The notes under the pieces: model-generated
Seen by the model: the letters and a program-made list of their open reading frames with translations, nothing else
Database searches by the model: none
What the model was told of the DNA's origin: nothing
Shown: positions 32,399 to 41,359 of the stretch, piece after piece
How positions within the stretch are numbered: position 1 is the stretch's first letter
Layout: every line of letters begins with the position of its first letter
Program-made: the position numbers and the translations under genes
NCBI GenBank assembly: GCA_002269645.1
Contig: NIVC01002953.1
Coordinates: forward strand, 1-41,359
Reading direction: 5' to 3'
Length of the DNA: 41,359 nt
DNA from: Macrostomum lignano
Taxonomy: Eukaryota

Positions 32399-32670
32399 AG
32401 TAGTATATAAAAAGACGCTTCTAGACCCAGAGCACTTTTTTAATGACCGTTTTAAGGGTCTAGAGGGGGGACACGGGGGGTAAATAAAAAAAACACATCT
32501 AAACACCATTAATACATCTAATCACCCATAATCACCCCTAACAATAAAAATCACTTCCAAACACTTCCAAACACTCCCCAACACCCCCCTCGCGTCCCCC
32601 CTCTTAAGACCTTACAAACGGTCATTAAAATAAGGTCTGATCTAGAAGCGTCTTTTTATATACTACTACT
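32399..32670. repeat. 272-bp terminal quasi-palindrome (inverted arms of about 82-88 bp around a G-free loop)
   Basis: AGTAGTATATAAAAAGACGCTTCTAGA (32399-32425) is perfectly complementary to TCTAGAAGCGTCTTTTTATATACTACT (32641-32667). The inner arms pair imperfectly. Confidence 0.93.
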
Positions 32671-32752
32671 CTATAACCCCTTGCCCGCGCCGCAGGCGCG
32701 AAGGGTCGGAAAGAATAGAAGCTATTTATAGTCAGCTCACCTACCCACCCAA

Positions 32753-32850
32753 CATTCCATTTAGACCAGATTTTAGACCAAACAAAACTAGACTATCGTT
32801 TTGGTTTTCGTTTTCAAAAATTTGGTCTAAAATCTGGTCTAAATGGAATG
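32753..32850. repeat. Perfect 30-bp inverted repeat with a 38-nt loop upstream of the first viral ORF
   Basis: CATTCCATTTAGACCAGATTTTAGACCAAA (32753-32782) pairs with TTTGGTCTAAAATCTGGTCTAAATGGAATG (32821-32850). Confidence 0.95.
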
Positions 32851-32888
32851 CAGACAATCTTTTTCTGTTACTAAAAATAGAACAAAAA

Positions 32889-33287
32889 ATGACACACGTT
32901 ACACATATGCAAAATCTGAATGAATTGCAGGTAGGAGACCCAGTTGAATACCGAGGTGAGGGGCTTTTTGATGTGGTTGGAACAGCAGCAAATTTTGTTA
33001 AAGACAATATGGGGCTTATAGGGCAAGCTGGCTCTGCAGCAGGCTCTATAACAAATGCTGTAAAAGGAGGAATTGAAGCAGCTAGAGCGGCAGAAGAACT
33101 AAAGAAATTGAGAGATTTTAACGACACCCTCTCACAAATAAATGCAATAAAAGATTTAAAGCTGGCACAAGCCGCACAACCAACAGAAACCCCCACGAAA
33201 AGCGCACCAATAAGTAATAAAGATATTCAGGATTTTAATAAAATGTTAAATACTATTAAAGGTGGAAAAGGATTAAAGAAATTTTAA
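32889..33287 (+). CDS. 132-aa putative virion protein; amphipathic helix after a GxG site, reminiscent of adenovirus pVI
   Basis: RGEG-LFDVVGTAANFVKDNMGLIG, then a G/A-rich stretch and coiled coil, and a C-terminal KGGKG-LKKF. Confidence 0.55.
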   Translation: MTHVTHMQNLNELQVGDPVEYRGEGLFDVVGTAANFVKDNMGLIGQAGSAAGSITNAVKGGIEAARAAEELKKLRDFNDTLSQINAIKDLKLAQAAQPTETPTKSAPISNKDIQDFNKMLNTIKGGKGLKKF

Positions 33288-33297
33288 CAATATAAAA

Positions 33298-34283
33298 ATG
33301 GACACAGATAACGACCGCTTATATTTTATAGGAGAAATTGTAGATACTTTAGATCTAGATGATAATAAACATAGCCACACAATGTTAAAAAGATTGGATC
33401 GATTAGGTAAAAAGTTTGACTACGACATCGATACATTTAAACTCGCAGCAAAATATGCACAAGAAGGAAGGCCAATATCCTTTAAGAATCGCGGCAGAAA
33501 TTATAGGTTGACAGACTCCGATGTGAAATTTTTAATGGAGACTCACACTAAAAAGGACGGCGGATTACTACCCATTCTACCGCTTCTTTTAGGACTTGGT
33601 GCAGCTGGAGCAGTCGGTTTAGCCGGAAAAAGAATTCATGATAATGTAAAACAGCTAGGAGAGTTAAGAGCGAAACAGGGGGGAATCTTACCCCTTGCAG
33701 CTTTGCTCCCAATAATTTTTGCAGGAATTGGAGCAGCTGGAGGAGTTGCTGGCGGAGCAGCTGGAATTGCAAAAGCAGTAAATGACAAAAAAGCTGCGGA
33801 CGAAAAAGCTAAAAGAGAGGCCGAATTTCAAAGACAGCAAATAACGCAGGACGCACAATTTAAACAAAAACTTATCGATACAATTAATAGTAGTTCAGCA
33901 ACAGCTGAGCAAAAAAGAAATGCAGAAGCTAGGTTATCAGCTGGAAAAGGTTAATACTAAAAGGATCAAATCATGGCAATGGTTTACTTTTACAAGGAAC
34001 AACCCAAGGAAGTGGAGTTGTAGCAGATAAACTACATGAATTTGGTCAAACTTTAGAAAAAACGGGTGAGAAAGCTAAAGGATTTTTTGACAATATTGGA
34101 TCCAATTTTAGGCCAGCAGTTCAGAAGATTTTTACTAAGTTAGGAAAAGATTTTAATATCATTGAAAAACACGACGGAAGCGGATTATATCTCGAAATGA
34201 GACCAAAAGCAGGTTCAGGAATTTTCTTAAATTCAAACGTTATGGGCAATGGATTGCTATTACCAAAAGCAGATCTCGAATAG
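33298..34283 (+). CDS. Core-protein precursor with two adenovirus pX-like hydrophobic peptides and repeated GxG-L sites; one frameshift at about 33951
   Basis: KDGG-LLPILPLLLGLGAAGAVG and KQGG-ILPLAALLPIIFAGIGAAGGVAGG resemble pX (GG-ILPLLIPLIAAAIGA). The -1 frame from 33951 stays open to TAG at 34281 with GNG-L, GSG-V, GSG-L, GSG-I and GNG-L sites. Confidence 0.68.
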
Positions 34284-34367
34284 GCTCCTGGGGGGAGGGT
34301 CTGGACACCAAAAACACAAAATTAAAAAATCAATAATTCAAACATTATATAAATTTTATTCTATAAA

Positions 34368-34558
34368 ATGGAAGCAATTTTAGCTCAAATCGACAACCCG
34401 AACTTAGAGCACAATTAATAGCTCAAATCGATGCACAACGAATTGCCGATAGGGCTGAAATAGAAGCAAGAATTAGGGCAGAAAATGAGATACGTTTAGA
34501 AAGACAATTAAATGATATTAATAACCCCAACCACAAGGACAAAATGGAGCTGAAGTAA
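34368..34558 (+). CDS. Small coiled-coil protein of about 63 aa, one frameshift near 34400
   Basis: TATAAAATG start; reads MEAILAQIDNP/ELRAQLIAQIDAQRIADRAEIEARIRAENEIRLERQL. Confidence 0.45.
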
Positions 34559-39032: not shown

Positions 39033-39058
39033 TTTTAATCTAAAAAAATAACAAAAAA

Positions 39059-39220
39059 ATGAAAGACATTATGTGTAATAAATGTAATGTGACTATGCAC
39101 AGAGGGCAAACAGCAAACGGAGATATATATCATATGTGTTATTCATGTTCTAAAATATATCAATTTGAAAAAACAAAAAAGATTGAAAACTCATATTACT
39201 ATTTTAAAAAACAATTTTAA
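39059..39220 (+). CDS. Zinc-ribbon protein (53 aa as written; probably extends to about 39537 via frameshifts)
   Basis: MKDIMCNKCNVTMHRGQTANGDIYHMCYSCSKIY has CxxC-x17-CxxC. It is below the ORF-track length cutoff. Confidence 0.6.
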   Translation: MKDIMCNKCNVTMHRGQTANGDIYHMCYSCSKIYQFEKTKKIENSYYYFKKQF

Positions 39221-39532
39221 GAAATCTTACAAGAGACATTTCTGATCCAATTTTAATTCCGGAAATAATGTTTATTTATATAATAACTTTTTCCATTTAA
39301 ATAAAGGAAAGGGATTAAGTTCGAAAGACTCTGAAAGGATTTTAATTTTAGTTGGATATTATTTCAATTTTCTTATTCGAGAGAATACAAAGTTTATAAG
39401 GATAGGTAACATACCTAACGAAATGTTATTGAAAAAGTCATTGGAATTTTTATGTATTGATAAAAAATTTAAACCTAGATCAGAAGAGAGTTACCACTTT
39501 GGGAAGAATATATAACATATGCATTAGAAAAA

Positions 39533-40185
39533 CTAAACAACCTGAAGTTCTACAGCACTTCCTGACCGCGGGCTTTGTGCCCCAGTAGCAATAGTTTCAG
39601 GTTCGTAAATGCCTAATGTTTCTATAGGTGGAGCTTTGGGTTTATCGAGTCTCAACTCTTTTAATTCCATATCGGTAAAAGTTTCAACATCTAAAATTCT
39701 ATTTCTATCTTTTAAATATTTTTCATATAATTCAACCGCGGTTGATAATTCATGAATCGTTATCTCTCCGTCATCCAATATTTTTTGCACATATAAATAT
39801 AATTGATTTTTATATTGCTTGCAACATCTCTTAAAGATTTATATTTTTTCTTTCTTTTTTAAGATATAATTTAATTGCTAAAAGTATTGATAAGTTTCTG
39901 ATCAATTCAAAACCTGATATTGAGCCAATTGAAATACCTAAAAATAATTGAGATAAATTAAGAGTTGGAATAGATTGTAAAATACCTAAAACGATTACAC
40001 ATAACATTGATAAGCTTCCAAATCCAATATTGAAAAAATCCATATTTCTTATATGGTTTGAAACTCTTCTTACTTTTTTAGCATATAAATCATAATCATA
40101 GTTTACGATCAACATTACTTAACATCTGACCTTTACGTTGGTTGAACCGGTCGCGTTCCCATTTATCTGCTTCAGATACCGACAT
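39533..40185 (-). CDS. Conserved Polinton-type membrane protein with two hydrophobic segments; frameshifted
   Basis: ORFs 39831-40115 and 39533-39790 join through KRKKYKSLRDVAS...VQKILDDGEITIHEL...YEKY. This resembles the kk..K...la...alDg.Is..E pattern I recall from Polinton/adintovirus membrane proteins. Confidence 0.55.
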
Positions 40186-40195
40186 TCTCGTCTAT

Positions 40196-40497
40196 TTTTA
40201 ATAGCACCAAAATGAATTCCCCACGCTCTTTGGGGATTTGTCCCGAGCTTAATAGGTATTGTATTGGAGTTATTCTTTCTTTTTTCTCCATTTAAATCCT
40301 ATTTTCCAAAACTCTTGAAGTATAATATGATTTTTTAATAACTTAATTAATTCTTGAAGCTTCTTGTTATCCTGAACATTTACAGTACTAAATAAAAATT
40401 TGGTATGAGATTTGAATGTTTTTATATTTGATTCTTGTTTAGGAATAGGAATAATAACATTATTTTGCCGCATCGATGGAGTTCTACTAAAAGCCAT
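40196..40497 (-). CDS. Small hypothetical viral protein(s), probably frameshifted
   Basis: TATAAAATG start at 40497. A downstream frame reads MEKKERITPIQYLLSSGQIPKERGEFILVLLK. Confidence 0.35.
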
Positions 40498-40512
40498 TTT
40501 ATATAGAAATAT

Positions 40513-41359
40513 TTAAGGTATTTCGGTTTGTGGCCGTTCCAAATATGCGGTCGCAGCAAAATCATATCCTGCTGATGTGCTACCACAAACGGCTGCACCA
40601 CGAATAAAATGTGCGGCATCTGCTCCTCCAGTTCGAGCACCAAAACCCATAAGAGTTCCGTTTTATCTAAATCTCCCCAAGTTCCACTATCATATGTAAA
40701 AAAGTTTTGCCCAATTAGCGTATATGTATTAGCTGATACATTGTATGTGCTTATTTGATACCAAACTCTTTGATTTAAAATATTAATTTCAAAAAGATGC
40801 CAATCGCCGTTATCAATATTAGCATAGGTTATAGTTTGATCTGCGTCATTAAGAACATCATTACGAGCTGTTGCACCGTCTGATTTTATATTGCTCCAAA
40901 CAACCCCAACTCTATCATGCCATTCACTCGCAAACAATCAAGCCGGCGCGGGTTGTTAACCCGGATCCAAATTCACTTGTTGGACGTTCGTGACAATATG
41001 CATAAAACCAAACGCGTCAGCACCATCTCCTGTAGCATTAGCAACTCGGAAATAGAAGGAGGCGGATATATTACGAAAATGGGTGAAATTAAATTGTAAC
41101 GCTCCAGACCGACCGTTGCTTCATCAGTAATTCTAGCACCATTTTGATAATCTATATAAGTAGCGCTCCAACAAAACTTCCTGTTGGAAAAATATCGCCG
41201 GCTGTGGTTGGGTTTTGATATCCAGTCCAATTGCAAATTACGGCTCGTACAAAGCGGCATCATTGCAGGTATTCCATCCAATTTTATTTTATCATTAAAA
41301 GACATTCGGCCATCCGCGTTTGGTGTTACTCGCGTGTCACATAACCTTTAGTAACAACA
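40513..41359 (-). CDS. Candidate fibre/receptor-binding protein with a C-terminal L-type (legume-like) lectin domain; 5'-incomplete, several frameshifts
   Basis: Reconstructed: VVTKGYV(D)TR...GALQFNF...SASFYFRVANATGDGADAFGF...NIDNGDWHLFEI...YGFGARTGGADAAHFIR...TEIP stop. The F.F...GADxFxF, DG.WH and GF.A.TGG...H motifs are L-type lectin hallmarks, and TKxYVD is a fibre-shaft motif. Confidence 0.68.

Follow-up and report, generated by a model that had tools for sequence, protein, structure and literature searches.

Insertion site and extent of the element

The window analysed here, a stretch of 41,359 nucleotides from the flatworm Macrostomum lignano, is the entire contig NIVC01002953.1 (C2953) of a 764-Mb assembly, and its right part is one half of a Polinton. 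The element starts at position 32399 (AGTAGT) with a terminal inverted repeat (TIR) of ~309 bp (32399..32707, + strand), which matched at 98-99% in all 40 cases scored (215 candidates in all). It is inserted into its target, a 21-bp host satellite (31404..32398), the last bases of which form the first copy of a 6-bp target-site duplication (TSD; 32393..32398, +). The contig end falls inside the element and, because the window is the full contig, no genes can follow within it. The other half occupies positions 1-9661 of contig C2954, where the inverted repeat is followed by the identical 6 bp and then by the satellite, which resumes in phase. The first 829 bases of C2954 overlap the window end at 97.6% identity, with 8 mismatches, and this identity ranks top among the 47 fibre regions compared. 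C2954 encodes the fibre, a putative protease, a penton-like protein, the ATPase, capsid, an HNH protein and the integrase, and the implied length of the joined element is ~17.8 kb, while two-ended copies measure 17.7-18.3 kb. The two halves most likely make up a single insertion, of recent date, from a Beta-type Polinton (adintovirus) family whose members measure ~17.8 kb and integrate with a 6-bp TSD.

The first-pass annotation had proposed an endogenous Polinton/adintovirus-like virus at this position and had named a lack of capsid, ATPase and integrase genes together with a missing right TIR, or a chimeric contig join, as the points on which the proposal might fail. None of these applies: the genes and the TIR are present on C2954, and the TSD and satellite phase agree there, which argues against a chimera. 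The break of the contig inside the element, its satellite flank and a 5.3-kb duplication on contig C110, which may be a mis-assembly, could be read as signs of an assembly chimera or of a contaminant virus joined to host DNA, and the copy might also have been domesticated to serve the neighbouring Cdx gene. We regard all of these as very improbable: termini of the family sit beside many different flanks, 70-74% of the sampled words occur in 20 runs, drawn from 8 studies on a single organism, and the window copy is 96-98% identical to the other copies.

The host context includes a homeodomain exon (9478..9620, +; PF00046 Homeodomain, E 4e-9) and a last exon with WFQNRR (12122..12550, +), which we take to be Cdx from the signature KTRTxDKYR. 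Its distance to the element terminus is 19.8 kb, in agreement with the ~20 kb given in the first-pass annotation, and the ~20 kb of repeats in between also argues against domestication. The host repeats at 2635-3536 and 20578-21741 are presumably fragments of mariner-like transposases and retrotransposon frames resembling reverse transcriptase and gag. Since there are ~100 insertions in the genome, the Cdx neighbourhood needs no explanation.

Gene content and placement

The gene of protein-primed DNA polymerase B (pPolB; 34368..38354, +) encodes an OTU domain, an exonuclease with an endonuclease-VII insert and a palm. The complete set of catalytic motifs claimed earlier was located between 34996 and ~38040 (OTU Cys/His, Exo I-III, Pol A/B/C and KxY), but it is spread over several reading frames, which had gone unmentioned; in another copy the polymerase is an unbroken 1327-aa open reading frame (ORF). 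The OTU Cys and His were assigned by their motifs. Homologs made up 6565 of 8000 candidates, with a best identity of 54-57%, and the polymerase tree, in which 115 of 121 rows were kept, contains unnamed homologs only. Two homologs, P0027 and P0048, carry PF14890/PF14528, which we take to be intein/LAGLIDADG domains and thus a further selfish insert in the clade.

The full-length polymerase gave no match to PF03175 at E <= 1, and a fragment matched it weakly (19 vs 25.8 bits). Beta adintoviruses are defined by an OTU-PolB divergent from pfam03175 (PMC8502044), and since a full-length PF03175 match is lacking, the polymerase is, as judged by its sequence, Beta-type. Four flatworm terms had no match in the supplement of PMC8502044. 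Flatworm Polintons as such are already known (PMC10748475, with 748 pPolB1; bioRxiv 10.1101/2025.04.19.649669).

Two genes precede the polymerase. The first encodes a small 132-aa protein with GxG motifs near both ends (32889..33287, +), which is likely a core precursor; its earlier designation as pVI-like found no support, as there is no family match and its amphipathic moments lie within the range of shuffled sequences (P 0.05-0.15). The second (33298..34283, +) encodes a core-like polyprotein in which two hydrophobic segments resemble pX and GxG motifs occur six times; its two ORFs of 218 and 116 aa are a single 328-aa ORF in another natural copy. The pX label goes back to a weak Adeno_PX match in Pfam, which with 18.1 bits remains below the cut-off of 25. 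As to the GasderminX and cupiennin-like accessory genes of Beta adintoviruses, no gasdermin match was found for this protein and the amphipathic helices were not significant. GxG-hydrophobic motifs cluster in these terminal proteins and in the PLA2-integrase linker and were not found in the capsid, penton, ATPase or fibre, and we infer that they may be protease sites. A ~21-nt motif at 32857-32877 occurs also just inside the integrase-end TIR, in each case before the first ORF; it resembles the reverse complement of the terminus and is possibly a promoter element.

The integrase, capsid and ATPase genes whose presence was to be checked were all found on C2954. The rve integrase matches PF00665 at E 1e-7, which is at the cut-off (E 2.9e-7 on C110), and the packaging ATPase matches A32 (PF04665, E 3e-7). 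The structure model of the capsid protein (pLDDT 52) matched iridovirus, mavirus and PBCV-1 capsids in Foldseek with E down to 7e-13, and the major capsid protein is, according to this model, a double-jelly-roll (DJR) fold. It had 3 homologs among 8000 candidates, at 41-49% identity. A profile search reached 232 proteins, and PF21738 was detected in 23 of the 28 hits and homologs scanned (E <= 0.01); the element's own capsid misses this family, which the next tier of homologs matches. Capsid-based locus searches of metagenome and viral contigs found no relative. The capsid lineage is thus sparsely sampled. With the TIR, TSD, pPolB, rve, ATPase and DJR capsid all present, the membership of the element in the Polintons is virtually certain.

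Between the polymerase and the fibre lies a convergent block, so the gene order described earlier is correct: the small core-like genes stand before polB, and the convergent block runs up to the C-terminal domain of the fibre. The block comprises a 119-aa ORF (38328..38687, -), a ~110-aa ORF that is broken here (38703..39032, -) and a ~170-aa ORF with two CxxC pairs, also broken (39059..39570, +), none of which has a family match, followed by the "membrane" gene, which encodes a ~218-aa protein with a hydrophobic segment and is broken here (39533..40185, -), and a ~100-aa ORF with no convincing family match (40198..40497, -). An additional 119-aa ORF is present in this block at L021-L022 (G000:C326) and missing from the window copy.

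Copies of the family in the genome

The family consists of ~100 near-identical young copies. The terminal arm has 209 matches in the assembly and a protease motif 114, a complete stop-free capsid frame was present in 62 of the 88 capsid loci scored (375 candidates), and 4 of the 6 other two-ended copies have perfect 6-bp TSDs. Several subfamilies coexist at 88-92% identity.

The frame breaks in the window's polymerase are likelier to be assembly errors than private decay, because of a deletion bias and the use of short-read contigs: among the private indels of 1-2 nt in the core and polymerase region of six copies, 21 of 22 were deletions, next to 63 private substitutions. None of the six polymerase break places listed is carried by contigs of the four other runs. 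Breaks fell in homopolymer runs of >=3 in 6 of 22 cases, against a background of 27%, which gives only weak support to a homopolymer cause.

Two unusual loci were also seen. The duplication on C110 (L001-L003, G000:C110) is an internal tandem one, which extends from the protease to the polymerase 3' end. L029 (G000:C349:312303-320328) is a derivative of 8 kb whose TIRs have diverged and which is flanked by a 6-bp TSD. It retains the integrase end and a type-II intron (see below) and has exchanged the polymerase and capsid genes for cargo with SET (E 2.5e-15) and Myb/SANT domains.

Fibre gene

The 3' part of the fibre gene, a type B allele with a tip resembling L-type lectins, closes the window (40516..41359, -), and the shaft and discoidin domain are on C2954; the fibre-like gene reported earlier is thus split between the two contigs. 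In natural ORFs, the shaft consists of 19-aa repeats, is variable in length and shows similarity to phage tail fibres. The discoidin domain of type B matches PF00754 (E 5e-11), the tip was assigned to L-type lectins by Atlas (0.91), and both domains are predicted to bind sugars.

Two discoidin types with ~32% identity were present in 27 and 19, respectively, of 46 fibre regions. This set is not a random sample: 40 regions were picked by their position among the 100 listed out of 114, and 6 came from full copies. Across four full copies the polymerase differs by 0.1-1.5% and neighbouring genes by <2-7%, whereas the fibre differs by 14-33% and the endonuclease slot by 13-34%. For 36 pairs of lectin alleles, synonymous divergence (dS) was 0.11-0.85 and dN/dS 0.04-0.27, as compared with a capsid dS of <= 0.022. 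Incompatible pairs in the four-gamete test amounted to 28-41% (171 informative sites, 46 regions) and rose with distance (0 of 1000 permutations). Old fibre alleles, kept under purifying selection, are therefore being recombined into mosaics on a backbone that is young and nearly invariant. The literature searched contained no example of within-family fibre mosaicism from an animal Polinton.

These data bear on the proposal of the first-pass annotation that the element is a virion-forming virus rather than a simple transposon. A full morphogenesis set, with putative protease and penton-like genes, is indeed present, but capsid genes are normal for Polintons and for this reason do not separate a virus from a transposon. 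A Polinton that multiplies only within the genome, with capsid and fibre genes as young passengers and fibre mosaics produced by conversion among copies from several earlier invasions, would fit the lack of particle and RNA evidence in what are contig data only; with the polB region 0.1-1.5% apart, intact capsid frames would be expected even without selection, and the coexisting subfamilies could donate alleles. It does not readily explain why the copies diverge chiefly in their fibre and endonuclease slots, and the fibre alleles must have been functional while diverging, since they did so under purifying selection. Multiplication within the genome alone is therefore unlikely as an account of the family, and we consider it likely that the family recently passed through a virion stage.

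Several points weigh against a virion stage and, in part, against the reading of the element as a whole. No particle, free linear DNA or transcript was seen in the runs examined, all of them contigs of unrecorded type, which cannot show free ends; no RNA run was listed among those containing the sampled words, which has no bearing on expression. The exchange seen in the fibre might also have come about by gene conversion between integrated copies. The penton-like and putative protease genes, which the first-pass annotation wished to see checked as penton and adenain, have the expected position and size and visible His-Asp-Gln/Cys motifs, but no Pfam, PHROG or PDB match was found for either, and their labels follow from position and motifs. 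The lectin label derives from the Atlas assignment because the structure model of the fibre failed (pLDDT 31); the tip had no sequence homolog among 2341 candidates and no PDB match. Finally, the TSDs of the two-ended copies on C632 and C904 do not match.

Terminal fold-back

The terminal 269 nt of the element (32399..32667, +) form a fold-back within the TIR, with a ~80-bp stem, a ~100-nt G-free loop and an inner arm that repeats the terminal 27 bp; the folding is well beyond expectation (z -14.6). A second, perfect inverted repeat of 30 bp (32753..32850) is found at the polymerase end only. Across 11 ends, 9 of the 27 terminal pairs were changed on both sides (0 of 500 shuffles), a number that kinship can inflate, and for a T/G variant strict arm-to-arm covariation was not seen within the main family. 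At three integrase ends with the same internal genes (L085, L086 and L089, on C581, C4485 and C1197) a long fold-back is kept although the TIRs are of unrelated sequence, and the small GC hairpin that comes after it is likewise the same.

Ends of the usual form numbered 114, against 4 outer-type matches. In three of these four the outer arm overwrites the inner arm over ~55 nt, and two share a flank, which makes two events. At L100 (G000:C2245 near 9560) 19 nt have been added to the terminus, a copy of the sequence that lies past the inner arm. Rolling-hairpin flip/flop was rejected for integrated copies, as the outer-type matches are overwrites or an extension and not flips. No stand-alone hairpin miniature inverted-repeat transposable element was found among 12 loci checked. 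The terminal fold-back is thus conserved and bears footprints of hairpin copying; we infer that, on the displaced strand, it may form a duplex origin locally and at times prime from the 3' end.

PLA2-integrase gene and group I introns

A PLA2-like domain lies in frame upstream of the integrase, and what is presumably its conserved calcium loop is the site of ORF-less introns of two types. Both PLA2 exons were visible in 17 of 23 loci scanned (10 with type I, 6 with type II and 1 intron-less), and a pattern search found a second intron-less copy; the intron-less copies contain one PLA2-rve ORF of 423-424 aa. Type I, with 93 occurrences, has P1 with a U.G pair, P7, P9.0 and P10 in 10 of 10 loci, and its ends are confirmed by the intron-less alleles. 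It matched the group I intron model RF00028 with 58.7, 62.1 and 71.3 bits (threshold 50) in three of the four type-I-bearing sources. Type II, with 24 occurrences, is the type carried by the window's insertion (on C2954), and it shares a 158-nt stretch with type I. The window's own half contains no group I intron, the Rfam matches there being sub-threshold miRNA models on hairpins. The reading of type I as a spliceosomal intron was rejected, as there is no AG at the end set by the intron-less alleles.

From these features it is quite probable that the introns of the PLA2-integrase gene work and splice themselves out of the transcript. A number of observations count against this. The last base of type I is A in 80 of the 93 occurrences and G in 13, and the lack of a terminal guanosine in the majority could impair splicing; the fourth type-I-bearing source, L083, has no Rfam match. 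Type II scores 33.5 bits against RF00028 (E 5.8e-7), which is below the threshold, and lacks a defined 3' end, and the exon-exon joint across it was not seen in contigs of four runs, although such contigs cannot show its absence. An in-frame Met downstream of the intron could allow the integrase to be made without splicing. Thus the introns might be genuine group I relics that no longer splice, with PLA2 silenced and the long integrase ORF expressed from the internal Met, leaving an entry-defective transposon; the terminal A of most type-I copies and the unseen type-II joint would agree with such an outcome. It is improbable, as P1, P7, P9.0 and P10 are intact across subfamilies, both PLA2 exons are conserved, and a coral mitochondrial group I intron without a terminal G was found to give correctly ligated exons in vivo (PMC6545197).

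The slot adjacent to the intron-bearing gene holds a putative free-standing endonuclease, for which three kinds alternate, two of them HNH genes and the third a PD-(D/E)xK-like gene. A role of this neighbour in intron spread is made less certain by two facts: the endonuclease type does not track the intron type, and both intron-less alleles adjoin an HNH gene like that of the type-I copies, which weakens strict collaborative homing.

As to the origin of the introns, the P7 motif was present in 91 metagenome and viral loci; 8 of these are similar to type I, at 71-80% over stretches of 63-194 nt, and 2 of 7 such loci tested had an Rfam match. These introns, the closest found, are flanked by what appear to be RNA-polymerase genes, and a giant-virus metagenome-assembled genome (MAG) label is attached to one of the contigs. 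Related group I introns with the same P7 variant were also noted at L193, L113, L161, L146, L189 and L190; judging by motifs, five of these six presumably lie within frames that resemble the RNA-polymerase large subunit and contain an endonuclease-like ORF, and it is the L193 contig that bears the giant-virus MAG label. In a review of 2014, the group I introns listed come from bacteria, from phages and viruses, from organelles and, within nuclear rDNA, from fungi, plants and algae; its animal cases are limited to the mitochondria of early-branching lineages, with none listed as nuclear (PMC3984707). No group I intron in an animal Polinton was found in the literature searched, which was of limited cover, with subscription papers missing.

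Proposed life cycle

Taking the locus as a whole, we consider it probable that it is a recent insertion of a Beta-type Polinton with a likely current or recent virion stage, the PLA2-integrase of which likely depends on group I splicing. In such a cycle the linear genome would be copied by protein-primed strand displacement, and the end of the displaced strand would fold back to pair with the inner arm of the TIR to which it belongs, so that a duplex origin is restored locally and the 3' end sometimes acts as a primer. The ATPase would package the genome into the capsid, while the protease would cut the GxG sites in the core precursors and free PLA2 from the integrase. The discoidin-lectin fibre might then bind surface glycans, and co-replicating genomes would exchange fibre segments; PLA2 may help membrane entry, after which the integrase would insert the genome. 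The ORF-less introns were probably gained from a giant-virus-type source; they would be removed from the mRNA by splicing, and recombination would spread them, possibly with the aid of the neighbouring free-standing endonuclease.

A fuller version is put forward only tentatively, as somewhat less than an even chance: a cycling animal virus with working ribozymes, derived from RNA-polymerase introns of giant viruses, at >100 nuclear sites, in which splicing, mostly with a terminal A, gates the PLA2-integrase entry protein, modules of the glycan-binding fibre are swapped as in phages and origins are rebuilt by fold-back. Two intron types and intron-less alleles would in that case compete for one site.

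Comparison with known systems

The element shares with Beta adintoviruses and Polintons (Starrett et al., PMC8502044; Barreat & Katzourakis, PMC8097293) an OTU-pPolB without full-length PF03175, rve, ATPase, putative protease, DJR capsid, AGTAGT TIR ends, a 6-bp TSD, a pX-like core gene and a PLA2-like gene. It differs in that PLA2 is fused in frame to the integrase and not to pX, that there is no gasdermin match, that the capsid has 3 homologs above 40% and misses PF21738, and that a phage-like fibre and group I introns are added. Phage-like fibres with discoidin or ConA-like domains, free-standing HNH genes and ORF-less group I introns of ~300-380 nt are shared with protist Polinton-like viruses (PLVs; Bulzu et al., PMC12220804). 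Here, in contrast, the host is an animal, pPolB and rve are present, the intron-bearing gene is PLA2-integrase, and two intron types, most of them ending in A, occur at one site. As to the suggestion that gene order and lectin fibre may define an undescribed lineage, the capsid has few homologs, and lectin or discoidin fibres have been described before, in these PLVs and in MELD viruses (PMC8502044).

An ORF-less intron at a conserved site, an adjoining free-standing endonuclease and coexisting intron-less alleles are also features of the collaborative homing described for phages (Hausner et al., PMC3984707; PMC11296320), whereas here three endonuclease types alternate next to the intron-bearing gene without tracking the intron type. 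Palindromes within TIRs have been proposed as replication primers in Halocafeteria virophages and PLVs (bioRxiv 10.64898/2026.07.28.741278). Those are ~52 nt and mostly in non-pPolB elements, while the present fold-back spans ~270 nt, has a long loop and belongs to a pPolB element; it shows copying footprints, and no flip isomer was found. With Adenoviridae the element has in common a protein-primed polymerase, DJR capsid, putative protease, pX-like segment and fibre. Membership in this family was rejected: an integrase is encoded and the element is integrated, the OTU Cys and His are both present, whereas OTU is inactive in adenovirids (PMC11161782), and there is no pVI match.

Implications

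The interest of the locus is carried by the introns, the fibre mosaic and the fold-back, which were absent from the first-pass annotation, and not by the Cdx neighbourhood. A young, high-copy family with old, recombining fibre alleles under purifying selection makes the question of animal-Polinton virions observable, and a terminal fold-back with copying footprints bears on how Polinton ends are replicated. If the reading of the introns is true, ~117 group I intron copies reside in animal nuclear DNA, inside a protein-coding gene, and their A-ending majority and G-ending minority form a natural comparison for 3' splice-site choice. Polintons would then be able to import ribozymes into animal genomes, and the processing of such ribozymes there would be possible.

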